Numbered from the stretch's first letter, positions 1 to 55,418 are shown. The stretch is DNA of 61,211 bases from a virus (IMGVR_UViG_3300045988_081724), one strand, 5' to 3'. Numbers and translations: made by a program. Notes: generated by a model not told the origin, from the sequence alone.

Positions 1-61
1 ACCTGCGCGGTCTTTCAGCCACGTGATCATAGTCACATAGCGGAAGCCCCATGCCTCCATG
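1..61. repeat. Terminal direct duplication (copy 1), identical to 61151-61211; most likely circular-assembly overlap
   Basis: Exact 61/61 nt identity between the window start and end. Confidence 0.9.
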
Positions 62-261
62 ACCTTGAGACCATCGGGGAGGAAATTGTTCGTCACCCAG
101 AGATACAGGTGGCAGTCATTCGCCGCAATGCTTGGGACGTTTAGCGCCATGATGTCTTTTGTACTCATGAGCGGGTAGTGGCGATCCGCTCCCCGCTTGA
201 TCTTGCCGCCCCCCCGTTCCATCCACGGGGGATCGCAATAAATTGTTCTATACTTTACCAT
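1..261 (-). CDS. DNA methyltransferase, MT-A70 family, N-terminal part (gene wraps the circular junction; the C-terminal part is 60884-61150)
   Basis: Manual minus-strand translation 261->1 gives MVKYRTIYCDPPWMERGGGKIKRGADRHYPLMS... with the DPPW catalytic motif. RBS GAGGTGG sits 7 nt upstream of the ATG at 259-261. It is in frame with the ORF 60884..61210 through the duplicated 61 bp. Confidence 0.75.
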   Translation of the reverse strand, partial: MVKYRTIYCDPPWMERGGGKIKRGADRHYPLMSTKDIMALNVPSIAANDCHLYLWVTNNFLPDGLKVMEAWGFRYVTMITWLKDRAG

Positions 262-271
262 TTCTGCCACC

Positions 272-1348
272 TCATATCGAAGTAGGCAGCGGATATTTCC
301 GGCTGTTCTTTTCAAAAGCCTGGAGGCGTTTAAGAGCCTTACAAGTTGCCCCCGTTTGATTTTTATACATTTTCTGATTCAACTGACAAAACTCCCTAAA
401 TGTCATTTTCTTAACAAAATTCACTTGATTACACCACCTAGCGATTGTTGTATACAGCCCTTCCCACTTGCTTTGCTTCCACGGTGCTTCTTTTGGGGAT
501 TGGTATCTCATAATATACGGTATTGCTCCATATCGAAATAAAAGTTTAACTCTTAAAAAAACGCCTTCGATGTCTCTTTCGTCTGTACTAGTAAATCCGC
601 ACAATACGTAAAATCGCAAACTGGAAGTATTAGTAAACTCACGAATAAGTTGTAGCTTTCTTTCTATTAAGCGATAATCGCCTATATTGTCAAATGCAAA
701 AGTATAATCCCCGTCATATCTACATGAAAATAATTGCTTGCACTTCTCTTTGTCTAATATTCGTTCATCCATTCCTTGCTTAAACTGGAATGGCTTTTTA
801 GTTTCCTTTAGTAGTTCAAGGTATTCTTTCCATTTTGGATGACTTAGAAAGTTATCGTCTAAGAGACAGATCTTCTTTCTCTGCATATTCAAGAACTCTT
901 TTAGAGGACTAGCAGAAAATGCCCTATTGTATTTTTGGTTTACACAAAAAGGACATTTTCTAAAGCATCCCCTAGTTAGATACCCAATGCTATAATCGGT
1001 ATAAAACTTGACACCTTTCTTGTCGCTTTTCCACTCATCGTATAGATGATAGTCCGGCATATAATGTTCAATGGCTTCTGGAAGCATCGGTGCTTTGTCA
1101 AAAAAGTAACCTGTGCCACCTTTTATAATTTTCGTGTTTGTAAATAAACCTCGAATTGGATCAGGTGTATCCGTAAACACCTTAGCCACATAAACTATGT
1201 CAAAGGTGGATAAATTTGAGCAATCGAGTACCAGTTTCACATCGTTACCTATGTCCTTGTGAAAAGCCGATATTTTCATGCAACATAAATTTGGAAATCT
1301 ATGATTTTTTCTACCGACAAGATCGGCGTCAATTATACCAATCTTCAT
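272..1348 (-). CDS. Radical SAM domain protein (orphan; function unknown)
   Basis: 358-aa ORF with a CX3CX2C cluster (GCFRKCPFC) in the middle of the protein. Its stop overlaps the RBS of the methyltransferase. Confidence 0.6.
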   Translation of the reverse strand: MKIGIIDADLVGRKNHRFPNLCCMKISAFHKDIGNDVKLVLDCSNLSTFDIVYVAKVFTDTPDPIRGLFTNTKIIKGGTGYFFDKAPMLPEAIEHYMPDYHLYDEWKSDKKGVKFYTDYSIGYLTRGCFRKCPFCVNQKYNRAFSASPLKEFLNMQRKKICLLDDNFLSHPKWKEYLELLKETKKPFQFKQGMDERILDKEKCKQLFSCRYDGDYTFAFDNIGDYRLIERKLQLIREFTNTSSLRFYVLCGFTSTDERDIEGVFLRVKLLFRYGAIPYIMRYQSPKEAPWKQSKWEGLYTTIARWCNQVNFVKKMTFREFCQLNQKMYKNQTGATCKALKRLQAFEKNSRKYPLPTSI

Positions 1349-2187: not shown

Positions 2188-2433
2188 TTACAAATATAAA
2201 TCTATGTGATGATCGTGATACTTTTCTCCGTTGTAAGCCCAATCTTTATCTACTATCTGATACCCGAAAACTTCCTTCTGCATGAGCTCTTTCACTTTTC
2301 GGATTCTGGCATGGTGTCTAGCCTCCGCTATGAACGGATCGTAATTTGCAGCGATGTATACAGTTTCTGCCTCTCCGAAAAGGTTTAACGCTTCTTCAAC
2401 GGTATTTGCGTGCATCCCCCTGTATGTAATCAT
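2188..2433 (-). CDS. Hypothetical protein (81 aa)
   Basis: ORF in the co-directional gene train. Confidence 0.4.
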   Translation of the reverse strand: MITYRGMHANTVEEALNLFGEAETVYIAANYDPFIAEARHHARIRKVKELMQKEVFGYQIVDKDWAYNGEKYHDHHIDLYL

Positions 2434-2435
2434 TT

Positions 2436-2771
2436 TTACTCCCCCGCAACACCTCTTCTTTTACACCAGTTTTTTAAAGTTGCCATATCTCCCGGATAAA
2501 CGCCAAGCAACTCACACAAGCGCCATCCCGATGTGCTTCCACTGTACGAAATCACATAGAGCCTCAAGTATCGCTCCGCCAATGTTCTGAATGTCATGTA
2601 CGTTCTGGGTGTAGACACATTAAGAAAAAAATCAATGGCTCTTTCTGCTTTCTCTACGTCAAACCCAGCAGGTAACACTCTTATTCCATTCACAAACTCA
2701 ATTTCATTCTTTTCCATCTTTACACCCTCCCGTTCGTTTAGCGTACCTCTTATAGATAGCTTGCGCCTCAT
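2436..2771 (-). CDS. Hypothetical protein (start possibly the internal Met at 2717)
   Basis: ORF 111 aa whose 5' end overlaps the HNH gene. Confidence 0.4.
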   Translation of the reverse strand: MRRKLSIRGTLNEREGVKMEKNEIEFVNGIRVLPAGFDVEKAERAIDFFLNVSTPRTYMTFRTLAERYLRLYVISYSGSTSGWRLCELLGVYPGDMATLKNWCKRRGVAGE

Positions 2772-6195: not shown

Positions 6196-6993
6196 CTATT
6201 GTTTATTGATAATGTCCTGAATGCCGATGACGTGTGAAAGTTTTTTGTAGTGTCTACAGCATGCACACGCTCCACATTTACGCGGCATGACATTTCCTTT
6301 TTTTACATCAAGGACACGTTCGAGATTGGCTTTAACGCTTTCCAGTGCATCATCGAGATAATTCTGCGTTATCTGAATAATTTGAATATCCGGCTCATAC
6401 TCCTTTGATGCCGCAGCGATATAAAACGGTAACTTTTTGCCAGTATTCTTTTCTACAACCGCTTGATAAATCGCTCCTTGAATGTCGTAGCCCCAATATC
6501 TAATAAAGTCCATGTAGCCAAACTGTCGCGAATAATACATTTCACGTATTGACTGCATTACCTTTAAATCAACAATGCAGACACCGGGAAAATAACTATC
6601 CATTTTTATTTTCCACGGCGTTCCGAAGAGATCCGCCGTCATAATAACCTGCTTATCCCCAGCAAGATATTTCAAGAAATACTCATCTTTGTTAATTCGG
6701 TTAATAACAGACTCCGCTTTCATAAATTCCGCTTTTAGCGTGCCGTCTTTCTTAAAAATTTCAGGATGCTCCGCTTTGAACGGTTCGAGGGTTCCTTCAT
6801 AATAATGGTCAACGTACGAACCAATCATCATTGCATTGTTCATGCCTTCCGACCACGTCCCATTCATTTTTTTCATGGCGCAGAACTCGCAACCTGCATG
6901 ACCGGGTGTACCAACAAAATCCTTATACTGCGATACGCTCATATATTCTTTATTTGCTTCGCTGCTATAGTACGTGCTTTCTTCCAGTTTCAA
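6196..6993 (-). CDS. PD-(D/E)XK exonuclease with C-terminal Cys cluster (Cas4/YqaJ-like), partner of RecT
   Basis: IVDLK motif and C-terminal CGACACC; immediately downstream of recT. Confidence 0.65.
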   Translation of the reverse strand: MKLEESTYYSSEANKEYMSVSQYKDFVGTPGHAGCEFCAMKKMNGTWSEGMNNAMMIGSYVDHYYEGTLEPFKAEHPEIFKKDGTLKAEFMKAESVINRINKDEYFLKYLAGDKQVIMTADLFGTPWKIKMDSYFPGVCIVDLKVMQSIREMYYSRQFGYMDFIRYWGYDIQGAIYQAVVEKNTGKKLPFYIAAASKEYEPDIQIIQITQNYLDDALESVKANLERVLDVKKGNVMPRKCGACACCRHYKKLSHVIGIQDIINKQ

Positions 6994-7856
6994 TTTCTAA
7001 GCTCCTCCATTTCCACTTCTGTAGTCTTATTTTTTGTTTCTTTGTAAGGTATTTGATTGAACTGCGGTTCTGTTACTTCGTTTTCAAGAGTAAAATTATC
7101 AGGCTGATTGTCGCCGTAGCTTCCATTTCCGTTCGCATCGAATGTTTTTTGATCTGCTTCAATGGCACGCTGCATACTAACGGAAAGGACTCCCCACCGG
7201 GAAAGAAGCAGCTTCAAAACCGTTTTCTTTGCCATCGTATCAAAGTTAATGCTCCATTGACTTAACTTTGTTCTTTCGTACAAATCTTTACGATAAGCAC
7301 TAGAATACTTTTTGGCGTGTTCAGTTATTTCCGCTTTACTCATATACAGTTCTTTCACAAATCCACTTTTTAACCGAAACCACGCATAGTACCCAACAAC
7401 TTTATTAAAATCCTTGTTTTTTCTGTCCTTACAAGAGGAAAAGTTTTCGGTAAAAATGCACTCTCCTGTGATTGGGTTGTACATTTCCAGTTCATCCGCA
7501 TAGACTTCCGCGCAATTCATTTTTTCGTAAGCGCCTGTTCTGATAGCTAACTGAATATAGCCTTTGTACATCATCTGAAACTGGCAGATGTCGTTATACG
7601 GAACAAGAGCGGAAAAACCGAGATTAGAATCTACAGGTAAATCGATAGATGCCGCTACCATTGCCGCCGCCATAATCGAATTAGGATTACAGTGTTTAAG
7701 TCTGCCGTTGTTTGCTACTGCGTTAATGATAGAAATCATAAACTGCGGTGCTTTTCCTCCAAGCGCCATGCTAAACCTAGATTTTACATCGTCAGTTTTC
7801 ATGAGTTTTTTAACTTCGGCTAAAGCGTCATTATTTGCAACAATTTTTGTATTCAT
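6990..7856 (-). CDS. recT: RecT-family single-strand annealing protein
   Basis: 288 aa with the ...DTMAKKTVLKLL... motif characteristic of RecT. Confidence 0.7.
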   Translation of the reverse strand: MNTKIVANNDALAEVKKLMKTDDVKSRFSMALGGKAPQFMISIINAVANNGRLKHCNPNSIMAAAMVAASIDLPVDSNLGFSALVPYNDICQFQMMYKGYIQLAIRTGAYEKMNCAEVYADELEMYNPITGECIFTENFSSCKDRKNKDFNKVVGYYAWFRLKSGFVKELYMSKAEITEHAKKYSSAYRKDLYERTKLSQWSINFDTMAKKTVLKLLLSRWGVLSVSMQRAIEADQKTFDANGNGSYGDNQPDNFTLENEVTEPQFNQIPYKETKNKTTEVEMEELRN

Positions 7857-8877: not shown

Positions 8878-8932
8878 ACTCTTCTTTCAGGTACGCTTCC
8901 ATTCGGGCTACTACTTCATCCACGATAATCAT
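8750..8932 (-). CDS. Hypothetical 60-aa ORF overlapping the SLT 5' end out of frame (possibly spurious)
   Basis: ORF only. Confidence 0.2.
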   Translation of the reverse strand: MIIVDEVVARMEAYLKEEFGFNNREEFEKAYETYSGLDISIMAGGKHLEEKDKDQVEECY

Positions 8933-9128
8933 CCTCCGTCCAGCTTACATTTAAAACGTCGGAGATCATTCGGTTCGTTGGTGGTGCAATGAGCTTACCA
9001 CTCACTACTAACGATACATACGGTCTACTGCGTCCAATTTTTTTTGCAAGCTCTGCTACCGTCATATTTCTTTCTAACATCGCAATTTTCACGCGAACTG
9101 ACCACGATAATTTCTTGGCTTTTTCCAT
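8916..9128 (-). CDS. Cro-like HTH (XRE family) regulator
   Basis: HTH LERNMTVAELAKKIGRSRPYVSLVVSG; divergent from the CI-like gene. Confidence 0.6.
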   Translation of the reverse strand: MEKAKKLSWSVRVKIAMLERNMTVAELAKKIGRSRPYVSLVVSGKLIAPPTNRMISDVLNVSWTEDDYRG

Positions 9129-9341
9129 AATTTCCCTCCTTTCGTAACGGAACTCTCAACTTTTGTACAGAACTGTGCTACAATACTTGTATACAAATGT
9201 TATGTAAGAATTATATATAATTCTTCGCTACATATGTATATCTATATATTGTCTTTTATTTTGTACAATCATATTATATACGAAAGTAACGTAAAAGTCA
9301 ACTACAATAAACGTATTTTTCCAACTTTAAGGAGGATCACC
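9129..9341. promoter_or_regulatory. Lysogeny switch intergenic region (divergent promoters, candidate operators)
   Basis: AT-rich 213 bp between divergent HTH genes. Contains the perfect 20-bp palindrome AAGAATTATATATAATTCTT (about 9205-9226) and two TTGTACA motifs. Confidence 0.55.
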
Positions 9342-9701
9342 ATGTCACCTGTGGTTCAGCGCATTTTAGATTTAATGTATGAACATCATGTAACAGCCGC
9401 AAAATTAACTTCTGATCTCGGAATTTCCCATACCGCCGTTACGGATTGGAAAAAGGGACGTGGATCACCTAAGGTTACTACTATCGCTGACATTTCGCGA
9501 TATTTTAACGTATCTACTGACTACATTATTACAGGCGCGGAATCCAAAAACTTTGCCATTCCATTTGCTACAAAACTGGATAAAATGTTAATCAGTAAAT
9601 TTCACAAGCTCCCCGAAGAAATTCAGCAGGAAGTTTTAAGTTATATTGACTTTAAAATAGCTCAAACTATTGATGCCACCAGTCGCAAGGTATCATTATA
9701 A
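9342..9701 (+). CDS. CI-like HTH (XRE family) repressor
   Basis: ATG at 9342 preceded by AAGGAGGA; HTH VTAAKLTSDLGISHTAVTDWKKG. Confidence 0.7.
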   Translation: MSPVVQRILDLMYEHHVTAAKLTSDLGISHTAVTDWKKGRGSPKVTTIADISRYFNVSTDYIITGAESKNFAIPFATKLDKMLISKFHKLPEEIQQEVLSYIDFKIAQTIDATSRKVSL

Positions 9702-9731: not shown

Positions 9732-11420
9732 ATGACTAGTGCCCGTGTTGCCATTTATATCCGTGTTTCGACAACACATCAGGTTGATAAAGACTCACTT
9801 CCTATGCAGCGTCAGGATTTAATTGCGTATGCAAAGCTCATGCTTCACACTACCGACTGTGTAATCTTTGAGGATGCCGGATACTCAGGTAAAAACATGG
9901 ATCGCCCACGCTTTCAATCCATGATGAAGCAAATTAGGCAAGGGCTTTTTACTCATGTCCTAGTTTGGAAAATTGACCGCATTAGTCGTAACTTGCTTGA
10001 CTTTGCCAGCATGTACGAGGAATTAAAATCTTTAGGTGTTACGTTCGTTTCCAAAAATGAGCAATTCGATACCTCTACCGCCATGGGCGAAGCAATGCTA
10101 AAAATTATTCTTGTATTCGCTGAACTTGAAAGAAACATGACAAGTGAGCGAGTAACGGCAACAATGATTTCAAGGGCTTCGAACGGACAATGGAACGGCG
10201 GGCGCGTCCCTTTTGGCTATAGCTATGATTCAGAAAAGAAGGAATTTTATATTAACGAAAAAGAAGCGCCCATAGTACGCTTAATCCATGATACCTACGA
10301 ACAAAATAGTTCTTTGCTTAACCTTACTCGCATTTTAAATGACAGTGGTTATAAAACTCGTGCAGGAAATGAATGGTCGCCTATTTCCGTACGAATTATC
10401 CTAAAAAATTTCTGGTATACCGGATGCTATCAATATAATCGGCTCAAAGATGGATGTCGCCAAAAGGAAAAGGATCAGTCTGAATGGGTAACGATACCAA
10501 ACCACCATCCTGCATTGATCTCTTTAAAGCAAAAGGAACGAATTGTAGAAATGCTTCGCTCAAATTACAAGCTCATTGCAGCAAACAACATTTATTACAC
10601 TTCAAACAACGTTCATGTCTTTGGTGGTTTAATTACCTGTGCCTTTTGTGGTAGACGCTACATTGCAACCACAGATACGAAAAAAGGATGGAAGATGGGG
10701 CGCTATGGATGTCCGACAAGACGGTACAGTAAAACAAAATGCTTAAATAAATCCATTTCCGACCTAACCCTTGGTGATTTTGTTTTTAACTACTTTGTTA
10801 ATCTTTTAAAAGTACAGAAGCACGCTAAAGAAATTACAACGACAGAGGAATTGCAACGTCAGCTATTATCTGGATATACCTTTAGTTCTGTAAAAGGATT
10901 ATCGCCTCAAAGTTTATTAGATACCCTGCGTCTGATCCATACGCTTAACCCCAGTGAAAAGATATACGGTAAAACTAAAGCTATAAAAAAAATTGCAAAG
11001 CCTGACAAGCAACTATTTACACTACGCGCAAAGCAAAGCAAGCTAAAAAGGGCATTAGATCGCTTGACTACGCTATACCTTTACAGTGAATCGTCTATGT
11101 CAGAAGCAGATTTTGTTGCTAAAAAAGCTGAAATCACAGATAACATAGCTAAAACGGAAGCGGAAATTTCAGAGCTTGTAAAAACTGACATACACTCGGA
11201 TATTACTGATTCTGAATTTTTGAGAAAAGCTAGTGAATTTGTTATTTCCCAGCAGCTTGTGTCCAGGAACTACATTAGCTACGAACGTTTAGCACGCACT
11301 GTAGACGTAAATATAACGCGCGAATTTATTGTAGGAACTATCGAACAAATCACCGTTCGAGACGGGCATATAGACTCCATTCTTTTCCGCAACGGTTTAT
11401 ACCACAAATTTATTTATTAG
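9732..11420 (+). CDS. int: Large serine recombinase (phage integrase)
   Basis: N-terminal resolvase catalytic domain VAIYIRVSTTHQ; 562 aa with a Cys-rich zinc-ribbon region. Confidence 0.9.
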   Translation: MTSARVAIYIRVSTTHQVDKDSLPMQRQDLIAYAKLMLHTTDCVIFEDAGYSGKNMDRPRFQSMMKQIRQGLFTHVLVWKIDRISRNLLDFASMYEELKSLGVTFVSKNEQFDTSTAMGEAMLKIILVFAELERNMTSERVTATMISRASNGQWNGGRVPFGYSYDSEKKEFYINEKEAPIVRLIHDTYEQNSSLLNLTRILNDSGYKTRAGNEWSPISVRIILKNFWYTGCYQYNRLKDGCRQKEKDQSEWVTIPNHHPALISLKQKERIVEMLRSNYKLIAANNIYYTSNNVHVFGGLITCAFCGRRYIATTDTKKGWKMGRYGCPTRRYSKTKCLNKSISDLTLGDFVFNYFVNLLKVQKHAKEITTTEELQRQLLSGYTFSSVKGLSPQSLLDTLRLIHTLNPSEKIYGKTKAIKKIAKPDKQLFTLRAKQSKLKRALDRLTTLYLYSESSMSEADFVAKKAEITDNIAKTEAEISELVKTDIHSDITDSEFLRKASEFVISQQLVSRNYISYERLARTVDVNITREFIVGTIEQITVRDGHIDSILFRNGLYHKFIY

Positions 11421-11437: not shown

Positions 11438-11980
11438 TTGATTAGACGCTCCAATTATCACTATAAAATAGCAATTACTATTGTTGCAGTTCTTTTCGCA
11501 GGGATGTGTTTTTCCGGGTGTAAAGATAAGCAAGACGCTCCCCCATCTGCGTCGGTATCCAGTCAGCAAGAGAAGGTTTCTGATTCGACAAAAGCCAGTG
11601 AAAAATCAGTGCTTGCTAAACTTCTAAGCACCACAGATAGCTCGGACACTACAAAAAAAGAATATATAGAAACAACGGCTTCCGCTATGATGGACGACTT
11701 GAATACTAACGCACTGCGCGCGAAGAAAAAATATAATAACCGCAATGTTGCTATTAAAGACGCTAAAATTGACGTTATTGACAGTGACGGCGATTATTTT
11801 ACTGTATGTTCGCCCGACGTAGATGTGCAAATTATTCCAATTCTAATAAACATACAATCGGAGAAGCAAAGAGAACAGTTATCCAATATGGATATTGGAC
11901 AGGTTATAACCGTCTATGGAACTGTCACACACGTCGGGGAGTCCATGGGATATGCCATCGATCTTAACAACTTCGAATAG
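11438..11980 (+). CDS. Lipoprotein (TTG start; candidate lysogenic-conversion or exclusion gene)
   Basis: Signal peptide plus lipobox ...LFAGMCFSGC; RBS GCAGGAGG; co-transcribed with int. Confidence 0.55.
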   Translation: MIRRSNYHYKIAITIVAVLFAGMCFSGCKDKQDAPPSASVSSQQEKVSDSTKASEKSVLAKLLSTTDSSDTTKKEYIETTASAMMDDLNTNALRAKKKYNNRNVAIKDAKIDVIDSDGDYFTVCSPDVDVQIIPILINIQSEKQREQLSNMDIGQVITVYGTVTHVGESMGYAIDLNNFE

Positions 11981-11995
11981 CAGATAATAAAAAAA

Positions 11996-12030
11996 CACCG
12001 GGTTTTATTGCCCGGTGCTTTTTATTTTAT
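11996..12030. terminator. Rho-independent terminator at the convergence of the int operon and the minus-strand genes (bidirectional)
   Basis: Hairpin CACCGGG-N8-CCCGGTG flanked by A-run and T-run. Confidence 0.7.
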
Positions 12031-12365
12031 AGAATTACAATGGATAATGCATCGCCAGGTTCGGAAGAAAAGCTCATATCAATCAGAACCTTTTCATCGA
12101 TGTGTTTATCATAAGTTGACCAAAGGTATGAAGTGACCTTTGTCATAACACAGGAGTGGAAGCTCAGTTCATTTTCTTCATACGCATCAATATCATCTTT
12201 AATTCTATCCCATTCATAAACATCTCGGGCTTCTGTGAAAAGAATTTTTGCCCCCTTTGGTAGGCTTTCAAGAATCCTGCTGACGCTTTCATCTCTTCGA
12301 CTTGGGCGGTTGGTTTTTGATGCTAACACACGAGCTAACTCTACATTCATTTCTTCTTTAGTCAT
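12027..12365 (-). CDS. Hypothetical protein (112 aa), moron region
   Basis: ORF. Confidence 0.45.
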   Translation of the reverse strand: MTKEEMNVELARVLASKTNRPSRRDESVSRILESLPKGAKILFTEARDVYEWDRIKDDIDAYEENELSFHSCVMTKVTSYLWSTYDKHIDEKVLIDMSFSSEPGDALSIVIL

Positions 12366-12441
12366 TTTAGGTTTCCTCCTGTTTACTAAATTTTCTTTAG
12401 CCCCGAAGTGGGAAAACCCTTTCCCACTTTACCTGCTTTAT

Positions 12442-12783
12442 CTATTTCATTTTTACAAGATCAGATACTTCCCAACATGGTGCATTTAGCTTTTCTTCCA
12501 AGGGTGGAAGTTTTTCAACTTCATATGCTTCAATTTCGATCTCGCACGTCATTTCTTCATTAAACACATAACATTTTCCATGCTTTTTGTAACTGCATCC
12601 CATTTCCATGCTTCCTTCGACAAACTTCTCAATTTCATCAAAGGACTTTTTACATCCCATCTCCTTCATTGCACACTCAAATGCCGTTTTGGCATTTCCT
12701 TTGAGTGTGTAAAGGAAGTGCATCTCCAAAATATGTTTTTCGCCTTTAGTATCTCTTTTTACGGTAATCTCATAAACTTTCAT
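12442..12783 (-). CDS. Hypothetical protein (113 aa) driven by promoter-cassette copy 1
   Basis: ORF directly downstream of the conserved leader and RBS. Confidence 0.5.
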   Translation of the reverse strand: MKVYEITVKRDTKGEKHILEMHFLYTLKGNAKTAFECAMKEMGCKKSFDEIEKFVEGSMEMGCSYKKHGKCYVFNEEMTCEIEIEAYEVEKLPPLEEKLNAPCWEVSDLVKMK

Positions 12784-12870
12784 CTTTGTTTCCTCCTGTT
12801 ATTTACTAACTATTTCCTTTGTTGTATATATATTACTACATTTTGCCTGATTTGTAAAGTGATTTATTTG
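12784..12870 (-). promoter_or_regulatory. Conserved promoter+leader cassette, copy 1 (-35 TTTACA, 17 bp, -10 TAATAT, about 40-nt leader ending AGGAGGAAACAAAG-ATG)
   Basis: On the minus strand -35 is 12853-12858 and -10 is 12830-12835. Near-identical copies at 50679-50770, 55285-55350 and 60762-60850. Confidence 0.7.
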
Positions 12871-12879
12871 CAAAAACAT

Positions 12880-12930
12880 CAAAAAAATAAAGGCATCTCA
12901 TTCTTTGAGATGCCTAGTACCTTTTTATTT
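12880..12930. terminator. Bidirectional rho-independent terminator
   Basis: Hairpin AGGCATCTC-N7-GAGATGCCT with T-runs on both strands. Confidence 0.65.
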
Positions 12931-13247: not shown

Positions 13248-13345
13248 GTTGTGCCTCCTGTTAACTTTTCAAAAAACTTGTCGGGTACTTTTTACCCTTC
13301 CACTATATTATACTACATTCTCCTTCTTTTGTAAAGTTATATATT
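13248..13345 (-). promoter_or_regulatory. Degenerate copy of the promoter+leader cassette (-35 TTTACA, 17 bp, -10 TATAAT)
   Basis: Shares GTGCCTCCTGTTA, ATTATACTACATT and TTGTAAAGT blocks with the other copies. Confidence 0.5.
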
Positions 13346-13356
13346 TACATAAATAG

Positions 13357-13392
13357 TTAAAAATAAAAGGCATCTCGCTATTAGAGATGCCT
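13357..13392. terminator. Rho-independent terminator (same stem family as 12891-12915)
   Basis: Hairpin AGGCATCTC-N7-GAGATGCCT; T-run on the minus strand. Confidence 0.6.
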
Positions 13393-13857: not shown

Positions 13858-13894
13858 TTTACATATATTATTATATATATAATATAATAACTGT

Positions 13895-14216
13895 ATATAC
13901 CCTTACAGTAAGGTTTACTGTAAGCCTTACACAATGCACCAATTATGTGTATTTATACAAAATCAGTTAATAACAAGGCGTATAACTTGTATATTGCGTA
14001 TTTTTTGACATACTTTTATTTATGGTTCAGCCGTTGCAAAATTGCTGTAAGATTTTGTAAGTCTTACTGTAATGCTTACTGTAAGCCTTACACTCATACT
14101 TACTGTAAGCATCGCATTGTATAATTGTAATATTTCCAACAAAAACGAATACATATTTATACAATGTAAGTCTTACATGACCCCTTACAGTAAACCTTAC
14201 TGTAAGCCTTACATAA
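13895..14216. repeat. Array of 8 or more copies of the palindromic 11-mer CTTAC(T/A)GTAAG, including three copies of the 18-mer TTACTGTAAGCCTTACA; non-coding
   Basis: Read directly: clusters at about 13900-13935, 14044-14110 and 14165-14215. No ORF over 60 aa on the coding strand. Confidence 0.8.
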
Positions 14217-14261
14217 AAAACGTCATTATAATTTTCAATTCCCATAAATAAGATTTATCGA

Positions 14262-41092: not shown

Positions 41093-41671
41093 CTATTCTT
41101 TCAGCATGTTTAAAAATCTTTCTTGGTTTTCCATACTGTTGAATATTCCGCTTGTCTCAAGTGTTACTGTTTTAGTTCCAGGCTTCTTGATACCTCTAGC
41201 GGTTACGCATGAGTGTTCTGCCTGTATTCTTACCGCTACGTCATTTCCTACTACCTTTGTCATGACTTCAAGAATGTCTTTCCCGAGTCGCTCCTGTAGT
41301 TGTAGGCGCTTTGCGCACATTTCCGCAATGCGTGCTACTTTTGATAATCCAATAACCTTGCCATTCGGCATGTAACCTACATCGACTTTCATGTTGTACA
41401 TTAGAGCAAGGTGGTGTTCGCAATATGAGAATACAGGGATTTCTTTTATTATAACGATACCTTTTGAGGTGGTAGGAAAGCTCTTACCAAACATTTTGGC
41501 AATATCATCGTTACTGTATTTTTCCCCTTCCCATACTTCATTTAGCATCTTTATTACTCGCTTAGGAGTTTCTTCAAGCCCCGGGTGTTTTTGTGGGTCA
41601 ATTTTCAATGCTAGTAGTAACGCAAAAATGGCGGCTTCTGCCGCTTTGTTATCTGTTTCCATGTTATACAC
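41093..41671 (-). CDS. folE: GTP cyclohydrolase I
   Basis: Motifs SYCEHHL and ...RLQLQERL... Confidence 0.85.
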   Translation of the reverse strand: MYNMETDNKAAEAAIFALLLALKIDPQKHPGLEETPKRVIKMLNEVWEGEKYSNDDIAKMFGKSFPTTSKGIVIIKEIPVFSYCEHHLALMYNMKVDVGYMPNGKVIGLSKVARIAEMCAKRLQLQERLGKDILEVMTKVVGNDVAVRIQAEHSCVTARGIKKPGTKTVTLETSGIFNSMENQERFLNMLKE

Positions 41672-42293
41672 CTCTTTCCATGGGATTCCATATAAATTTG
41701 TGAAGCTGGAGCTGAATACGCCAGTTTTGTAAATTGTGCTTCTTCATATACGCTACAATGTCTCTCGGCTCGATTTTACCGAACACCGGGCTTATATATA
41801 CCTGCGCTTTTGGGTCATACGTGCTATACACGTTATGGGCTTGATCGAGATCGTCCTGACTTCCTACTACGAATTTCAGTACATCCTGTTTCCTCAGTGC
41901 CCAAAAATTTTCCTCTAACATATGCTTGCTCATGCCGGAGCACCCACACTTGTAATCAATCGTAAACCATGCATTTTTATGTCGCATGTATGGGATAATT
42001 AAAATGCTACCGTTTGTCTCAATGTTAACATCATGCTCCGTAAGCCTATCCAGTAGCCCATGAACATCTTGAAATAACGGTTCTCCGCCTGTTAATGTAA
42101 CATTCTTGTAAGATACCTTTTTCACAATATCTTCGATTTCCATTTCTTCCCCTTCATTGAAGGTATATATAGAATCGCAGTACGTGCATCGAAGGTTACA
42201 TCCAGTTAGACGAATAAAGGACGTAAGCTCTCCAGCTCTACGCCCTTCTCCATCAATGCTATCAAAAATTTCGTTAACTTTAAGTTTCTTCAT
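41664..42293 (-). CDS. queE: 7-carboxy-7-deazaguanine synthase (radical SAM)
   Basis: CNLRCTYCD cluster near the N-terminus; size 209 aa. Confidence 0.8.
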   Translation of the reverse strand: MKKLKVNEIFDSIDGEGRRAGELTSFIRLTGCNLRCTYCDSIYTFNEGEEMEIEDIVKKVSYKNVTLTGGEPLFQDVHGLLDRLTEHDVNIETNGSILIIPYMRHKNAWFTIDYKCGCSGMSKHMLEENFWALRKQDVLKFVVGSQDDLDQAHNVYSTYDPKAQVYISPVFGKIEPRDIVAYMKKHNLQNWRIQLQLHKFIWNPMERGV

Positions 42294-42615
42294 AGATAGC
42301 CACGTTCCCTTCGCTTTCCTGTACCTGTACCTTTACGCAGTACGGAACGTTGTCATGAATCCATTTGGCAATGTTTTCCGCAGTTGGGTTCATGTTTGGC
42401 AGAACCTCATTTACATACTGATGATCTAAGTTCTCCTTTACTGCTTCACTAATGTGCTTGAAGTCTACGACCATGCCATTTTCATTGAGCGTTTCTGCTT
42501 TGCAGGTTACGTAGATAATCCAGTTATGCCCATGAAGATTACTGCACTTGCTTTTATATGGAAGTGTGAGCTTGTGTGCGCCAGCCACTTCCAGTCTTTT
42601 TGTCACTGTGTACAT
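42280..42615 (-). CDS. queD: 6-carboxy-5,6,7,8-tetrahydropterin synthase
   Basis: CSNLHGHNW motif; 111 aa. Confidence 0.8.
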   Translation of the reverse strand: MYTVTKRLEVAGAHKLTLPYKSKCSNLHGHNWIIYVTCKAETLNENGMVVDFKHISEAVKENLDHQYVNEVLPNMNPTAENIAKWIHDNVPYCVKVQVQESEGNVAIYEET

Positions 42616-42616
42616 T

Positions 42617-43324
42617 TCAGTCCTCCAATGCAGGGTCTTTTACACCATTTTTACGAAAAGCATTTGCTCTATCTATGCACGTTCCGCACGTCCCGCACGG
42701 CTTTTCTTTTCCTTCGTAGCAGCTCCAGGTTAGTTTATAAGGTGCATTCAGCTTTAATCCGACAGCCACCACACCGGCTTTATTCAACTTCGCAAGGGGG
42801 AATTTTAGATGAACTTTGCCATAAGTGCCAATTTTTATAGCTCTTCCCAACGCTTGCAAGAAAGGTTCGCTACAATCTGCATAAGCGTCTCCTGCTGCAT
42901 CATCTGCGTGTGCGCCGATATAAATATCAACCTCATCCTCCTCGAATAGACTTGCCGCGAGCGATGCAGCTGTCGAGAGCATAAGACCATTGCGGAACGG
43001 TACATAAGTTGAAACTTTGCCTTCTCCATTCTTGGCAATCTGCTCGGCATAGCTCTCGTGTATAATTTCTTCCGTGGAGCCCTTAAGAAGGGAGCAATTC
43101 GAATACTGGAAAATAGCAGAAAGATCAAACTCATAGTGCCGTACATGGTAGTACTCCGCAACCTTGCGTGCCGCAAGGATTTCCTTTTCGTGCTTCTGCC
43201 CATAAAAAATAGAAGCAGTCACTACATTTTCAGCACCTAATTCTTTAACTGCAATAGATACGCAAGTTGTGGAATCTACGCCACCGCTAGATAAAACAAT
43301 GGCTTTCTTATTTATTAAGTTCAT
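42617..43324 (-). CDS. queC: 7-cyano-7-deazaguanine synthase (start MNLINKK at 43324; the ORF extends to 43432)
   Basis: PP-loop SSGGVDS; C-terminal zinc site CGTCGTC. Confidence 0.85.
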
Positions 43325-43790
43325 GAATATATTCTTCTTTCCGATTTTTAACGAGCCCCAAATTATCCCCAGCGTTTGCAAAAGGCTTAATGCTGATGCC
43401 ACCCCTAGGATTGAACAAGCCATAGACCTCAATATATTTAGGGTCGAGCAATTTTTTTAAGTCTTTCATAATCATATTTACGCAATCTTCATGAAAGTCT
43501 CCGTTATTTCTGAAACTAAAAAGATACAGTTTTAGTGACTTGCTTTCGACAAGATAATTGCGCGGAATATAATTGATTATGATTGTTGCAAAATCCGGCT
43601 GTCCTGTTTTTGGGCAGAGACTTGTAAACTCTGGGCAATGTAAGTGAACCACATAATCATTGTCGGGATGTTTATTTTTAAATTTTTCTAATAAATTTGG
43701 ATCATACTCTTGCCTATATATGGTTTTTTTGCTTCCTAAAGAGTTAACGCCTTCCAACTCATTTAAGGTTCTCATAGATAATTCCTCCAC
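43308..43790 (-). CDS. queF: NADPH-dependent 7-cyano-7-deazaguanine reductase
   Basis: [15 protein letters not shown] and ESKSLKLY motifs. Confidence 0.8.
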
Positions 43791-44590
43791 TTTTCTTCAT
43801 ATTCCCTTTGCATCGCCATTCCTCTCTTATAAGCTTCAAGTTCAACTAGATCTCTATTCTTGGCGATTCTTATCCAGTCGCTATCAATTTTTCGCCCATC
43901 CATCACTGCATAGCGAACAGGCGAACTCCACGAACTACTATCAACAAAATCAAAAGGAACTTTATCTAACACATCACGGCGTGTCATGCCTAGACAATGC
44001 ATTTTGCAGCCATATTGTTTGGCTCTCTTCAAAAACATCAAATATTGGTCGTCTTTAATATCCTCATTTTTGAATCCTGATACGGCTATAATCTTTCCTT
44101 GGAAATCACGACACATTTTATTGAACTCCGCAATGCCGCGACCTTTGTGCCAAACTGGAATGATTTTATTTGAAACGTTCATTAGCTTTCTTCGCAATTC
44201 CAACACGCGCGGATAGCCAACAATAGCATCAATATCTATTTCAAAAAATCCTAAAATGTTCGGTTTGTCGAAAGTTTGAATAAATTTCGCATATTTGTCT
44301 ACGTATGTCTCCCATTCTACCCGCTTCCCTTTCTGGAAACTGTGCGCACCACTGTCAACTAGCATAAGTTCACTATTATCTCGGATACAAGTCGCACGTT
44401 TTAAAAAACCTGAATTTTTCAAATAGTAATAAGATACTAGATTATATTTAAGACGAAATGGCAAGTTTTTAACGTCTTTCAGCCATGAGTTTTCTGGACG
44501 TATCCCATGCTCTAACGAAGATAAAAATATTTTCATTAGAGCACCTTCTTGAAAAATGCTTTGCCCGCAATATGATGACACTTGGGACAC
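43772..44590 (-). CDS. dpdA: tRNA-guanine-transglycosylase-like protein (DpdA-like 7-deazaguanine DNA transglycosylase, inferred)
   Basis: [12 protein letters not shown] resembles the TGT DSGGFQ motif; context downstream of folE-queEDCF. Confidence 0.55.
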
Positions 44591-45042
44591 TCTAGCCTAT
44601 CCTTGCTTGGTTCTTCATAGGATTCTTCATCTAATTCGTGTACATCATCCCATTTAATGCTATCTCCTACCTCAAAGCCAAAATCACCGAGGTCTATATT
44701 CTCTATTCCTTCAATTTCTAAATTGAGTTTTTCAAAATCCCATTCTGCTAGTTCGTTTGTTTTATTGTCCGCCAGTCTAAAAGCCTTGATTTGTTCATCT
44801 GTTAAATCGTTAGCAATGATACATGGTACAGTTTCCATGCCTAGTTGAATTGCTGCTTTCAGTCTCGTATGTCCGCATACAATCACATCATTTGAATCAA
44901 TAACGATCGGCACTTTGAACCCAAACTCTCGAATTGAGTTTGCTACAGCTTCCACGGCGTTGTCGTTCTTTCGCGGATTATTTTCATACGCTTTAAGTTC
45001 GCCGACCTTCTTCTCTACAATTTCCATAATTCGTCCCTCCAA
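44536..45042 (-). CDS. ParB-like nuclease domain protein (possible DpdB-like partner)
   Basis: VIVCGHTRLKAA ParB/Srx motif; RBS GGAGGGA. Confidence 0.65.
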   Translation of the reverse strand: MEGRIMEIVEKKVGELKAYENNPRKNDNAVEAVANSIREFGFKVPIVIDSNDVIVCGHTRLKAAIQLGMETVPCIIANDLTDEQIKAFRLADNKTNELAEWDFEKLNLEIEGIENIDLGDFGFEVGDSIKWDDVHELDEESYEEPSKDRLECPKCHHIAGKAFFKKVL

Positions 45043-45080: not shown

Positions 45081-45244
45081 GACCTGCCCTGTTTTCCGAT
45101 ATCAAAGAAAATCATTGGTTTAGCAGCAAAAAACATAAGATAAAAGTATTAGGCACAACATATCGACTTATGCTTTGTTACAAGGCAGGTGTTAAGTTGT
45201 AATGCGGTTTCACATGGATGCTAATGTATGCTAGACCGCGCTAG

Positions 45245-45314
45245 GGTTAGGAATGGATTTGAACCATTATTTGGCGATTTCAGGTCGCCCGTTTTACCAT
45301 TAAACTACCTAACC
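45245..45314 (-). tRNA. tRNA (70 nt, no encoded CCA); anticodon loop CCUGAAA, apparent anticodon UGA with non-canonical C33 and a short variable arm; identity uncertain
   Basis: Manual cloverleaf: acceptor GGTTAGG/CCTAACC, D-arm GTTT-AATGGTA-AAAC, anticodon stem GGCGA/TCGCC, T-arm AATGG-TTCAAAT-CCATT. Confidence 0.5.
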
Positions 45315-45426
45315 ATGCAGTGCCTCTAATGTACACTCATCATGAATACATAAGAGGCAAACATTGAGGGGGTGTAAACGGTGGATCAGTCCCTCTCCAG
45401 TGGAGAAACCTTACACTCATTTACAT

Positions 45427-45490
45427 TGGTGAGCAGCACTAGATTTGAACTAGCAAAGTCTTTTGACCGCAAATTTACGGTTAGCTACTC
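45427..45490 (-). pseudogene. Truncated tRNA-like element: duplicate of the 3' part of the adjacent tRNA-Tyr (T-arm, acceptor, CCA) with no anticodon arm
   Basis: Shares GTCAAAAGACTT-CTAGTTCAAATCTAGTGCTGC-CACCA with 45512-45594; 64 nt. Confidence 0.4.
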
Positions 45491-45511
45491 TATACTCCCT
45501 AGTCGCATACA

Positions 45512-45594
45512 TGGTGGGCAGCACTAGATTTGAACTAGTGAAGTCTTTTGACTCAGACTTACGGTCTGTCCTTTAGCCGCTTGGATAGCTGCCC
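45512..45594 (-). tRNA. tRNA-Tyr(GUA)-like, class II (long variable arm), anticodon loop CCGUAAG with C33
   Basis: Acceptor GGGCAGC/GCTGCCC plus ACCA; D-loop AAGCGGCTAAA; T-arm CACTAG?TTCAAAT. Confidence 0.55.
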
Positions 45595-45629
45595 ATGTAT
45601 TGTAAACCATTTTCGCGATACTACGAAAA

Positions 45630-45705
45630 TGGTGGGGACAGCAGGACTTGAACCCACATCGAAGCGGTTATGAGCCGCTTGCTTTACCATTTAAGCTATA
45701 TCCCC
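45630..45705 (-). tRNA. tRNA-Met(CAU) (elongator type; could be Ile2)
   Basis: 76 nt including CCA; anticodon stem AGCGG/CCGCT; loop CUCAUAA. Confidence 0.7.
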
Positions 45706-45717
45706 AAAGACGCATTG

Positions 45718-45780
45718 TGGGTTTGGAAGGACTTGAACCCTCGACACAAAATCGCTCTAGCCAACTGAGCTACAAACCCA
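45718..45780 (-). ncRNA. 63-nt tRNA-like element with acceptor, D-arm and T-arm but no anticodon arm
   Basis: GGGTTTG-TA-GCTCAGTTGGCTAGAGC-GATTTTGTGTC-GAGGGTTCAAGTCCTTC-CAAACCC-A. Confidence 0.4.
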
Positions 45781-46543
45781 TATGCAAGGCAAGCTCGTGG
45801 CTCACCTTGCACTTATCATTCGGAGGAAACCGAATCTTCATGCCGAGCAAAACAGGTCGTCGCCCCTCTTTTGCTCATGTAAAGGGTAAAACGGGTAGTT
45901 AGCCGATTTCACCCACATATGCGCTCTACGCCCGCACAAGCGCAGAGCTAACTTTCCTTAGCCAAGAAACATTTAAGCGGCGCAGCCTAGTTTTTCCCAA
46001 TGACGGCTACACTTCATGAGTACGATAACCCGATAGTACGTCCGGCACATGTGAACCCATCAAAAGTTCGCTTTAGAATTAGTTGAGAGCGTGTTCACAC
46101 TGTTGCTTCCCCTAACGTTGGGAACTTTTAGCATCCACGACTGCTCCAACACTCCGCAGCAGAGTATTTTCCTTTTTACGTTAGACCCGAAGGAAGAAAC
46201 GCCGTTTTTCTGTGCATGAGCTTAACGATAACTCTCCACTCCGGTAAGTGGAACCCCCTGTTTAGAGCCTTAGAAACAGCACTAGTACCGTCCCATGCAT
46301 GCAGGGACACGCTTTTTCGTAGGTGTAGCGCGCACCGGACACTTTTAAGGTGCTCCGAACCATCCTTCCATTTTCGTAAGGAAACTTTAGCACGCCACTC
46401 TATCGCTGTGGATTGCGCTCTGTCCTTTATACTGATGACATGCTGTCAGCCGCACGCTACATTTTTGCCATGGCATGTTGTGCGGAGCTGGTGGGAGTCA
46501 TTTATACTCGCCCCCCGGAGAGTGCTGCCTTTTCGGCAACCAT

Positions 46544-46617
46544 TGGCAGGGAGTGATGGAATCGAACCATCGATGCAGGAGTCAAATTCCCGTGCCTTAC
46601 CTCTTGGCGAACCCCCT
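46544..46617 (-). tRNA. tRNA-Gln(UUG)
   Basis: 74 nt including CCA; anticodon stem CGGGA/TCCTG; loop AUUUGAC; T-arm GATGG-TTCGATT-CCATC. Confidence 0.7.
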
Positions 46618-46723
46618 ATAATTCCATGTAGTTATTGCTACATGGAGTGATACCGCAACGATATTACGCGCTCCCATGCGGTTAGGATACGCCCCTATAT
46701 TTTAAGCCACTTGGGTAGGCTAT

Positions 46724-46815
46724 TGGCGGATACAGTAGGATTTGCACCTACGAGCGGCTTACAATCCGCTTCTTGCTTAGCAGGCAAGCACCTTCGACTA
46801 CTCGGTCATGTATCC
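46724..46815 (-). tRNA. tRNA-Ser(GCU)
   Basis: 92 nt; anticodon stem CTTGC/GCAAG; loop CUGCUAA; long variable arm; CCA encoded. Confidence 0.7.
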
Positions 46816-46816
46816 A

Positions 46817-46905
46817 TGGCGGAAGCGGTAGGATTCGAACCTACGCCCAGTTTCCCAGCTCTCTGTTTTCAAGACAGTTCCCTTTGACCTCTTGGGTACG
46901 CTTCC
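46817..46905 (-). tRNA. tRNA-Ser(UGA)
   Basis: 89 nt; loop CUUGAAA; long variable arm GAGCTGGGAAACTGGGC; T-arm GTAGG-TTCGAAT-CCTAC; CCA encoded. Confidence 0.7.
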
Positions 46906-47099
46906 ATGCGACAAGGTGTGTTGCTTCACCTTGTCAGATTTGTGGAGGTGTCATGCCACTAGGCATGACCACAAGGAAGAAAGCCAATTCTTTTTTTTGC
47001 GGAAACGCTTAGAAGTATTCTCGCTTGATAGAATGGAACTCGCAAATGCTTATTCGTTGGCTACAATAATTATAACATATGATTATACCGTAAATCTTC

Positions 47100-47160
47100 T
47101 ACGGTTTTTCTAAATATTTACAGCATATTCTGAAAGTGATTTATTCCTATATGTTGCTTC
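47100..47160 (-). promoter_or_regulatory. Degenerate copy of the promoter cassette upstream of the tRNA array (AATCACTTTCAGAATATGCTGTAAATAT..., TATAAT further downstream)
   Basis: Partial identity to the AATCACTTTACAAATCAGGCAAAATGTAGTAATAT core. Confidence 0.3.
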
Positions 47161-47171
47161 TTAACTTAGTA

Positions 47172-47212
47172 CACAATAAAACAGCCCAGTTATTCTTGGG
47201 CTGTTTTATGTC
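47172..47212. terminator. Bidirectional terminator downstream of the HTH gene
   Basis: Hairpin ACAGCCCAG-TTATTC-TTGGGCTGT with T-runs. Confidence 0.65.
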
Positions 47213-47262: not shown

Positions 47263-47661
47263 CTACTGGATTGTATTTAAATACTTAATACATTTTTCTT
47301 CACTATCAAACTCTATTTCGCTAGGCGTTCCAGTTCGATTATCGAAGGCAATATATTTGTCATTATCTTCGCAGAAAAATAGTCCCATTTGGTTATTATT
47401 ATTTCGGATCTCCTCTAGCTCGCTCGGTACAACGCGAATATATCCTACTTTTTTTAGTTCCATGGCATATCCTAGACAAGCCATCATTTCTAAAAACTTC
47501 TTGACTGTTACATCCTTTTGCAATACAAATCTCTGCCTGCACGCTTGACGGGTTAACCCACTACGTCTTGCCAGTACTGATAAACCGACTTTTTCTTTCT
47601 CCATGTATTGCTGCACAATTTCTGTTCCTGTTTTCATAATAAATCCTCCTGTTAAAATCAT
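47263..47661 (-). CDS. HTH-domain protein (putative transcriptional regulator)
   Basis: KVGLSVLARRSGLTRQACRQRF HTH-like segment. Confidence 0.4.
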   Translation of the reverse strand: MILTGGFIMKTGTEIVQQYMEKEKVGLSVLARRSGLTRQACRQRFVLQKDVTVKKFLEMMACLGYAMELKKVGYIRVVPSELEEIRNNNNQMGLFFCEDNDKYIAFDNRTGTPSEIEFDSEEKCIKYLNTIQ

Positions 47662-50678: not shown

Positions 50679-50770
50679 CTTTGTTTCCTCCTGTTATTTA
50701 CTAACTATTTCCTTTGTTGTATATATATTACTACATTTCCCACGATTTGTAAAGTGATTTATTGTCTTAG
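50679..50770 (-). promoter_or_regulatory. Conserved promoter+leader cassette copy
   Basis: Near-identical to 12784-12870 through the -10 element; diverges upstream. Confidence 0.65.
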
Positions 50771-50797
50771 CTGGCATTTTCCCGATACAAGTTTGCA

Positions 50798-50832
50798 ACA
50801 AAAAAGCCCATCAAATTTTGATAGGCTTTTAT
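50798..50832. terminator. Terminator-like imperfect hairpin
   Basis: AGCCCATCAAA-TTTGATAGGCT with T-run on the minus strand. Confidence 0.45.
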
Positions 50833-51425: not shown

Positions 51426-51440
51426 AGCTATTTCCTCCCT

Positions 51441-51878: not shown

Positions 51879-51880
51879 TT

Positions 51881-55413: not shown

Positions 55414-55418
55414 TAGAC

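Follow-up and report, generated by a model that had tools for sequence, protein, structure and literature searches.

Genome Organization

The stretch of DNA analyzed here (IMGVR_UViG_3300045988_081724; 61,211 nucleotides, hereafter the window) belongs to a temperate myovirus-like phage of the human gut, of the Clostridia/Firmicutes type. It carries a repeated intergenic cassette that combines a promoter-like sequence, a leader and a ribosome-binding site directly ahead of a start codon. Bases 1–61 of the window are identical to bases 61151–61211, an exact 61-bp terminal direct repeat detected in a repeat search; the window is therefore a circular genome of 61,150 bp, opened at an arbitrary point, and the overlap stems from assembly.

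The gene layout was read from protein-family scans of the open reading frames (ORFs) in the window. The plus strand holds only a short lysogeny block, consisting of a CI-type helix-turn-helix (HTH) gene (9342–9701), a serine integrase (9732–11420) and one further gene (11438–11980). All remaining genes lie on the minus strand. They start with a Cro-type gene (8916–9128), followed by a RecT-like annealing protein and an exonuclease (within 6196–7856), DnaD/DnaC-type replication proteins, RusA, an HNH endonuclease and a dUTPase. A radical-SAM protein and an MT-A70 methylase span the window ends; the methylase occupies 60884–61210 and continues into 1–226. About 13.5 kb of small genes, mostly of unknown function, extend from 60761 down to 47263. 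The same strand encodes a tRNA cluster, a 7-deazaguanine cluster, terminase, portal, capsid, sheath, tape measure, baseplate, fibre and endolysin, and four small unknown genes (13695 down to 12027) between the lysis module and the integrase region.

At the DNA level, GenBank phages yield no match either for the cassette (distant search mode) or for 20 kb of the window (near mode). The closest terminases from cultured phages, at ~60% identity, belong to temperate Clostridium and Clostridioides phages, and every related contig with a stated source originates from human-gut metagenomes. The sole organism label, Dialister sp., comes from one binned contig of 1.9 kb and is too weak to name a host.

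Copies of the Cassette

Four full copies, 86–91 bp long, lie on the minus strand, each abutting an ATG: cassette A (12784–12869; ATG at 12783), cassette B (60762–60849), cassette C (55261–55349; ATG at 55260) and cassette D (50679–50769). A hidden Markov model (HMM) built from them recovers all four at E = 5e-27 to 6e-25 (nhmmer; 1.1e-26, 2.5e-26, 5.9e-25 and 5.5e-27, respectively) and finds nothing comparable elsewhere in the window. A 29-nt core pattern detects three copies at ≤3 mismatches, with 0 expected, the spacer of the fourth being more divergent, and the repeat search groups the copies as a single 4-copy family. Pattern search, repeat search and nhmmer (E ~1e-25 each) thus agree on the repeated cassette proposed in an earlier note on this DNA, and the consensus quoted there is the exact sequence of the copy at 12784–12869. 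The note bounded copy C at 55285, which cuts it short because an in-frame TTG in the leader extends the mechanically called ORF; the corrected bounds are those given above.

A further, partial copy is designated A′ (13248–13356, minus strand). It had been described as a degenerate cassette at 13248–13345, and it does share the promoter half (TTTACA, 17 bp, TATAAT at 13307–13335) and the AACAGGAGGCAC ribosome-site module with the full copies, but its leader is its own, different and longer. The HMM matches only the promoter half (13305–13356, model positions 2–53, E = 0.007). A second degenerate copy, placed at about 47100–47160, shrinks to a 19-nt remnant of the cassette 5′-end (AATAAATCACTTT-CAGAAT; 47127–47145, minus strand), which lies between the terminator of operon D and the tRNA cluster and is missed by nhmmer.

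In the region around this remnant (47000–47210), the bidirectional terminator of operon D (47176–47209) and the remnant are followed by a hairpin (ACCGTA...TACGGT) and two TATAAT boxes lacking a good −35 element. Located just upstream of the tRNA cluster and the late region, these boxes possibly represent an activator-dependent late promoter.

Predicted Promoter, Leader and Ribosome-Binding Site

All four full copies contain AATAAATCAC-TTTACA-(17 bp)-TAATAT, and A′ has TATAAT as its −10 element; a T-rich stretch and AATAAATCAC lie upstream of the −35. The −35 and −10 hexamers are located at 12853–12858 and 12830–12835 in A, 60828–60833 and 60805–60810 in B, 55328–55333 and 55305–55310 in C, and 50748–50753 and 50725–50730 in D. 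At the sequence level, the near-consensus sigma70-type promoter claimed earlier is therefore present, with hexamers at 17-bp spacing in all copies. The spacer ends in TGTAG, an invariant block upstream of the −10 that stands in the register of the Gram-positive TRTGn −16 element (PMC6570832) and nearly matches it. In the more distant relative 099312, the same register is occupied by TGTGG-TATGAT, a full TRTGn extended −10. The start site is predicted at the A of a CA dinucleotide, 7 nt past the −10.

The leader is about 40 nt long (ACAAAGGAAATAGTTAGTAAATAACAGGAGGAAACAAAG), A/G-rich, and ends in AGGAGG 7–8 nt ahead of the ATG; a Shine-Dalgarno sequence, AGGAGG or GGGAGG, is found at this distance in all copies. 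The A′ leader, of about 55 nt, is unlike the standard one and carries a small hairpin. Five leaders fold no better than their shuffles (minimum free energy −1.4 to −7.1 kcal/mol, z = −0.1 to −1.4), and an Rfam scan of the whole window assigns no family to the leader, its sole matches being six tRNAs. Together, the folding of five leaders and the full Rfam scan speak against a structured cis-regulatory leader RNA (riboswitch, attenuator or put-like element). The cassette contains no inverted repeats and no dyad symmetry beyond TACA-N12-TGTA.

The end of the leader also occurs separately. A ribosome-site module, AACAGGAGG(A/C)AAC, is present in six copies, all on the minus strand and all ahead of gene starts, versus 0.46 expected. 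One of them lies at 47645–47653, ahead of the last gene of operon D. A promoter-less 3′ module, AACAGGAGGAAACC (12370–12393, minus strand), precedes the 112-aa gene of unit A and serves as a rejoining point in the relative L005, as described below.

Two further interpretations of the cassette were considered and dropped. Its TTTACA ... ATGT...TATA arrangement resembles promoters of the TcdR sigma family; the ORF scans revealed no gene for a sigma factor of this kind, and the register is that of a sigma-A promoter with a −16 element. A TAGTAA repeat 30 nt past the −10 had prompted the idea of a sigma-dependent pause with Q-type antitermination. This was abandoned: at hexamer position 6 of the downstream element the key T is missing, and the 099312 leader does not contain the repeat.

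Terminators and Transcription Units

Intrinsic terminators, each a hairpin with a U-tract (−15.8 to −20.8 kcal/mol, z = −4.3 to −6.2), stand 30–60 nt upstream of four of the five promoter copies, on the same minus strand. The one ahead of A (12891–12915, z = −6.2) is homologous to the one ahead of A′ (13368–13392, z = −4.3), the only such pair among these hairpins. Operon B ends in a terminator upstream of C (55381–55414, −19.2 kcal/mol, z = −5.7) and operon C in one upstream of D (50797–50836, −19.5 kcal/mol, z = −5.8). The statement that the cassette is usually preceded by a terminator accordingly holds for A, A′, C and D, and each of these copies therefore heads its own transcription unit. 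Unit A is closed by a bidirectional terminator (11990–12023, minus strand), which also forms the right-hand edge of the cargo segment swapped in relatives.

The units differ in size. Unit A′ consists of a single 93-aa gene and unit A of genes for 113 and 112 aa. Operon B is ~5.3 kb long and encodes DUF7698, PAPS-reductase-like, kinase-like and single-stranded DNA-binding (SSB) proteins and a 189-aa HTH protein; operon C (~4.3 kb) begins with a 74-aa gene and operon D (~3.4 kb) with a 174-aa gene. The view that each copy drives a different small hypothetical gene therefore needs qualification: A and A′ head moron-like units of one or two genes, and B, C and D head multi-gene operons of 3.4–5.3 kb.

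Several genes of these operons deserve separate mention. The 189-aa protein (55419–55988) possesses a C-terminal HTH (HTH_11, E = 4e-5; PHROG 1558, unknown function). Its gene closes operon B and is followed immediately by the terminator and cassette C; the protein is a candidate regulator of late or middle transcription. Two small genes of the same operon (57018–57263 and 56786–57025) include a sub-threshold match to the Thoeris anti-defence Tad2-like domain (E = 0.0055, 17.6 bits against a cut-off of 25) next to a clear DUF1653 match, hinting that the cassette-driven operons may carry counter-defence genes. Operon C contains adjacent paralogous genes for 157 and 170 aa (50952–51953) without a family match; a 59-nt stretch is 85% identical between them (51013–51071 versus 51451–51509), indicating a local tandem duplication.

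Sequence Variation and Gene Conversion

Variation was compared over 22 copies from the window, eight viral contigs and one contig of a metagenome-assembled genome. The −35 with its upstream flank, the −16/−10 block and the leader are near-invariant, whereas seven spacer positions, all in its upstream half, vary freely; sigma-A promoters are unconstrained at precisely this place. Among paralogues within a genome, this spacer stretch differs in 29–48% of comparisons versus 2–6% elsewhere between the −35 and the leader. In three genomes the contrast gives Fisher p = 4e-5 to 5e-16; it is large, even though the paralogue pairs lack independence. The likeness between copies is thus not limited to the hexamers and continues through the leader to the ribosome-binding site, in agreement with the earlier note.

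Comparison of orthologues gives a different picture, as orthologous leaders show 0.057 differences per site versus 0.071 at third codon positions and are no more conserved. Since the clade is only ~5–7% divergent, this test of selection on the leader is uninformative; the informative signal is the identity among paralogues, because their flanks are otherwise unrelated. The four cassette positions are orthologous in every clade member, and the copies are therefore older than the clade. Nevertheless, the distance between paralogues (0.036) equals that between orthologues (0.036).

Linked variants explain part of this uniformity. A three-base variant, ATATTTACAGTAAAGG, replaces ATATATACAACAAAGG at both A and D in contig 083171, where B and C are standard; it also occurs at A in contig 23491_277 and at B in UOJS925, and a close derivative (ACGG for ACAG) is found at B in L026 / 7000000455_137 and ODUU199; elsewhere in these genomes there are copies that retain the standard form. 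Likewise, L001, L008 and others have the standard form in place of the C-specific AAAAAGTTGG. The sharing of one multi-site variant by positions that are not orthologous requires non-allelic gene conversion, and part of the identity among paralogues is due to this process. Conversion alone would have homogenized the spacer as well, which has not happened; selection on the other positions, including the leader, is therefore likely.

The seven spacer positions themselves (within 12836–12852, 50731–50747, 55311–55327 and 60811–60827) vary among orthologues at 0.24 per site versus 0.07 at third codon positions. The alleles found there come from a small set (TCAGGCA, TCAAGCA, TCGTGGG, TTAGGCA and others), and the same allele can turn up at one cassette position in one genome and at another position in the next. 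Shuffling of alleles by conversion and copy-specific tuning of promoter strength are both possible explanations of this pattern.

Recombination Joints in Related Phages

The suggestion that the cassette is a portable recombination module proved to be the best supported part of the earlier note: in relatives, several replacements, deletions and relocations of cargo genes break inside the cassette or its ribosome-site module. The relative L009 follows the window collinearly as far as the terminator at 12023 and resumes doing so at the ATG of cassette A (12777). The intervening window bases 12024–12776 are replaced in it by three genes (68, 114 and 101 aa), where the window has two. In L104, the order is cassette A, the 113-aa gene, a hairpin, a promoter-less 3′ module of the leader (TTAGTAAACAGGAGGAAACAAA) and then the three genes of L009. 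This arrangement implies that L009 is the product of a deletion between two copies of the leader 3′ module.

In L005, the A′ promoter and spacer are joined to the standard −10 and leader, a B-type ribosome site and a new 81-aa gene, and the sequence rejoins the window at 12381. In 099312 (L079), the B-type gene is gone from the B position and is found at the C position, in the order B-type gene, leader 3′ half, A′ gene and C operon, the operon beginning at its second gene. In L088, the D gene sits behind a ribosome-site module of the C/A′ type. Altogether, the A/A′ site displays four different cargo haplotypes among otherwise collinear relatives.

The surroundings of cassette B are also variable. 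A 1.5-kb block with the radical-SAM and methylase genes is present in the window and in 121585, is absent from four relatives, and ends ~35 nt upstream of cassette B. In the relatives lacking this radical-SAM/MT-A70 block (window 44–1280 and 60888–61150), DNA from the dUTPase side abuts the sequence just upstream of cassette B.

Distribution Beyond the Clade

The full leader is confined to this narrow clade; an 18-nt leader match in L072 lies within a coding region and was rejected as a chance occurrence. The promoter core (ACTTTACA, N, AATGTAGTATAAT) reaches further: distantly related gut phages, which have the 7-deazaguanine operon in common with this one, contain it at two sets of sites. 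One set is located ahead of that operon and the other beside a CI/Cro-type HTH gene, with a different leader each time. The search pattern itself required the core, so the core sequence of these distant matches is not independent evidence. Its use at a promoter of the immunity region favours the view that host RNA polymerase recognizes it unaided by the phage.

In 099312, the architecture is kept and the sequence is not. This phage has its own cassette of ~400 nt in two copies, 90–93% identical and differing mainly in the spacer. The leader is different from that of the window and contains a hairpin, and the two copies share it in nearly identical form.

Interpretation and Comparison with Known Systems

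We propose that the repeat is probably a host sigma-A promoter and translation-initiation cassette, working like the promoter-early stem-loop (PeSL) elements of T4-type phages. Its parts would be a sigma-A promoter, a leader predicted to measure ~40 nt and a ribosome-binding site of consensus sequence, and each copy would make its operon transcriptionally autonomous and equally well initiated. As the copies head separate units that are mostly preceded by terminators, accessory and early-middle genes could be expressed as parallel, insulated modules under the same signal. Two forces would keep the copies uniform: selection on the function of the promoter and initiation region, with only the seven spacer positions drifting, and non-allelic gene conversion. 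The patches of 65–90 bp identity would also let the copies act as crossover points, through which modules of cassette and cargo gene could be replaced, deleted and moved within the clade. The phage-encoded RecT and exonuclease could recombine such short homologies; this role, like recognition by host sigma-A, promoter activity at the predicted start site and high translation efficiency, is what we infer from the sequence context.

Several observations weigh against this proposal. The −10 element TAATAT is sub-optimal and yet invariant in all full copies, and the leader, which basic promoter function does not need, varies no more than the hexamers; an additional bound factor could account for either. 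The spacer that remains unhomogenized despite conversion makes selection on the leader sequence itself likely. Constitutive sigma-A promoters in the lytic-strand operons of a prophage would fire in lysogens unless repressed, and comparison with the immunity region revealed no repressor site. The window shows no terminator ahead of cassette B, the inserted methylase gene ending just upstream of it. Not every mosaic boundary between relatives coincides with a cassette; identity with L002, for instance, switches from 99.8% to 96.8% at window 2376–2739. Finally, promoter activity, start site and timing (lysogen versus lytic cycle) are predictions.

Sets of similar promoters are familiar from lytic phages. 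In the SPO1 host-takeover module and among T5 early promoters, small genes are under the control of several strong and very similar sigma-A/sigma-70 promoters, combined with strong ribosome sites, and the likeness extends past the hexamers, in T5 into conserved transcribed regions. Near-identity of the whole leader and use as a recombination joint are not defining features of these sets.

The closest parallel is provided by PeSLs, mobile regulatory cassettes of T4-type phages whose neighbouring motifs recombine into encapsidated mini-circles (Arbiol et al. 2010, PMC2839356; Comeau et al. 2014, PMC4122927). Like a PeSL, the element described here is intergenic and composite, ~100 bp long and present several times in the genome (4 × 86–91 bp and a partial copy), with an AT-rich upstream region, sigma-70-like −35 and −10 sequences, and a Shine-Dalgarno sequence and start codon at its 3′ end. 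It is likewise tied to insulating terminators and small genes of unknown function, and insertions, deletions and replacements in close relatives cross over within the motif, including between the −10 and the ATG (L009, L104, L005, L079, L088 and the indel upstream of B). A phage recombination system that would need just short homologies is a likely further parallel. However, PeSL phages are lytic and T4-like, with the motifs in hyperplastic regions, whereas this phage is a temperate, integrase-encoding gut myovirus of the Clostridia type. It has 4–5 copies rather than dozens, heading multi-gene operons besides single genes. A long unstructured leader belongs to the conserved core, the stem-loop lies outside that core except between A and A′, and there is no sequence homology to PeSLs. 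Strictly speaking, the cassette therefore falls outside the PeSL family; it is an example of a known principle in a new setting, a temperate gut phage of the Firmicutes type.

Two other systems share individual features. Morons, in the concept of Juhala and Hendrix, are units of promoter, gene and terminator in temperate phages (discussed in PMC2839356). Units A′ (13248–13392) and A (11990–12915) resemble them in comprising one or two small genes with their own promoter-like site and terminator, located between the lysis module and the integrase region, with cargo that varies among close relatives. Classical morons, in contrast, do not have a conserved flank in common, and illegitimate recombination is assumed to underlie their movement; the cassette found here also heads three large operons in the early-middle region. 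The start-associated sequences (SAS) of Cluster K mycobacteriophages, together with their extended form (ESAS), are presumed to function in translation initiation and lie 3–7 bp from start codons (Pope et al. 2011, PMC3203893). They too are repeated, asymmetric motifs in a single orientation, containing a ribosome-binding site a few bases ahead of the starts of unrelated non-structural genes; the counterpart here would be the AACAGGAGG(A/C)AAC module with its six copies. The SAS, however, is 13 bp long, present in 11–19 copies and independent of promoters, and the ESAS adds 17-bp inverted repeats; the present unit is 88 bp long, includes a promoter, has no inverted repeats, occurs in far fewer copies and is unrelated in sequence.

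The invariant bases raise the question of whether a regulator reads the cassette, either as DNA or as RNA. As a DNA operator for a CI-type repressor, a Cro-type protein or the 189-aa HTH protein of operon B, contacted at the blocks on either side of the −35 and −10 and in the initially transcribed region, it would switch the four operons together, silencing them in the lysogen or activating them as a middle class. A temperate phage must keep its lytic-strand operons quiet in the lysogen, the candidate regulators are encoded by this phage, the −10 is fixed though sub-optimal, and the invariant bases (AATAAATCAC and +1 to +30) reach past the contacts of RNA polymerase. Against this, the immunity-region repeats TTTTGTACA, CTACAATA and AAGAATTATATATAATTCTT are not found in the cassette, comparison of the immunity region (9129–9341) with the cassette reveals no convincing CI/Cro operator motif common to both, and the only dyad is TACA-N12-TGTA. 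Distant relatives with a different HTH protein (36% identical) use the same core beside the immunity gene, suggesting that host polymerase acts alone, and units A and A′ occupy the classical position of morons, which are usually expressed in lysogens. We consider an operator unlikely on balance. At the RNA level, which was the main idea of the earlier note, the leader would be the site of a dedicated trans-acting factor, encoded by the phage or possibly the host (a protein that represses or activates translation, a guide for an endoribonuclease, or a small RNA), that controls the translation or stability of the four operon-leading messages coordinately, as a long-site post-transcriptional regulon. 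The leader is as invariant as the −35 and −10 over at least 22 copies, while the seven spacer positions 20–30 nt away vary freely; it is single-stranded and so accessible, and its 3′ half is kept ahead of cargo genes even where the promoter is missing. The leader of 099312, different yet near-identical between its own copies, is what would be expected of co-evolution between leader and factor. Yet the leader is restricted to the narrow clade and replaced by a different one in this more distant relative, and copy A′ has another leader too. ORF family scans and motif searches found no candidate RNA-binding protein or complementary RNA; the leader has no structure, covariation or Rfam family and, among orthologues, no conservation beyond that of third codon positions; and the demonstrated gene conversion also accounts for identity within a genome. 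We rate an RNA-binding factor as slightly less probable than an operator. The two readings are not mutually exclusive, and both have a rather low probability.

Far less probable is recognition by a phage RNA polymerase or an alternative sigma factor, which would make the cassette a promoter of the T7 or SPO1 gp28 type. Long identical promoter blocks scattered across a genome are typical of phage-specific transcription, and the 189-aa protein has a weak region-4-like HTH (Sigma70_r4_2, E = 0.038); yet the −35, 17-bp spacer, −16 and −10 show canonical geometry, the variable stretch coincides with the unconstrained part of sigma-A promoters, and no RNA polymerase or convincing sigma domain was detected in the ORFs scanned. 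A selfish or recently duplicated sequence without regulatory role, such as a miniature mobile element or a segmental duplication, might likewise be short, intergenic, multi-copy and of high identity. It is nonetheless the most improbable explanation considered here: the four positions are orthologous throughout the clade, so that the copies pre-date its divergence. All copies point the same way, each lies against a start codon at the distance of a ribosome site, most come after a terminator, and their variation tracks promoter anatomy. Terminal inverted repeats and target duplications are lacking; on this ground and that of orthologous positions, a miniature inverted-repeat transposable element, an integron attC site and a homing site were rejected as well.

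If a PeSL-like promoter and initiation cassette is indeed present, the PeSL principle would not be peculiar to lytic T4-type phages and would extend to temperate phages of the Firmicutes type, which are common in the human gut, as the 105 assembly blocks with the exact integrase protein indicate. It would offer a testable mechanism by which prophages gain, lose and relocate small unknown genes with their operon logic intact, and would also provide gut anaerobes of poor tractability with a compact cassette for apparently strong expression. As the spacer drifts and the leader is frozen, a function of the leader itself could be tested with few reporter constructs.

Other Features of the Genome

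The exact integrase protein is found in 105 blocks of the assembly collection. Contigs L100–L105 measure 70–118 kb and are longer than the 61-kb genome, and the 10 kb on either side of the integrase in these long contigs are phage DNA in the order of the circular map. Since phage DNA flanks the integrase on both sides, either the attachment site is not beside the integrase gene or the contigs are concatemeric assemblies.

A non-coding region at 13870–14240, where lysis-side genes give way to the moron-like genes, contains about eleven palindromic CTTAC(A/T)GTAAG units in two clusters, often at 12-bp spacing. The array looks like iterated sites for a dimeric DNA-binding protein. Candidate roles include origin iterons, a partition site for the ParB-like protein (44536–45027), and an attachment or regulatory region.

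A complete 7-deazaguanine precursor pathway is encoded at 41093–45027 by genes for GTP cyclohydrolase I (41093–41662), a QueE-like radical SAM protein (41664–42293), QueD/PTPS (42280–42615) and QueC (42617–43324). They are followed by a 272-aa protein without a Pfam match (43772–44590), possibly a DpdA-type transglycosylase, and then by the ParB-N protein. The block shares 45–72% amino-acid identity with that of the distantly related gut phages carrying the promoter core, and the pathway suggests that the phage DNA is hypermodified.

The tRNA cluster extends over 45244–46905. ARAGORN identifies five tRNAs (Ser-TGA twice, Met, Gln and Ser-GCT), Rfam adds a sixth tRNA-like match at 45718–45779 (46 bits), and repeats resembling tRNA ends are present at 45427–45552.

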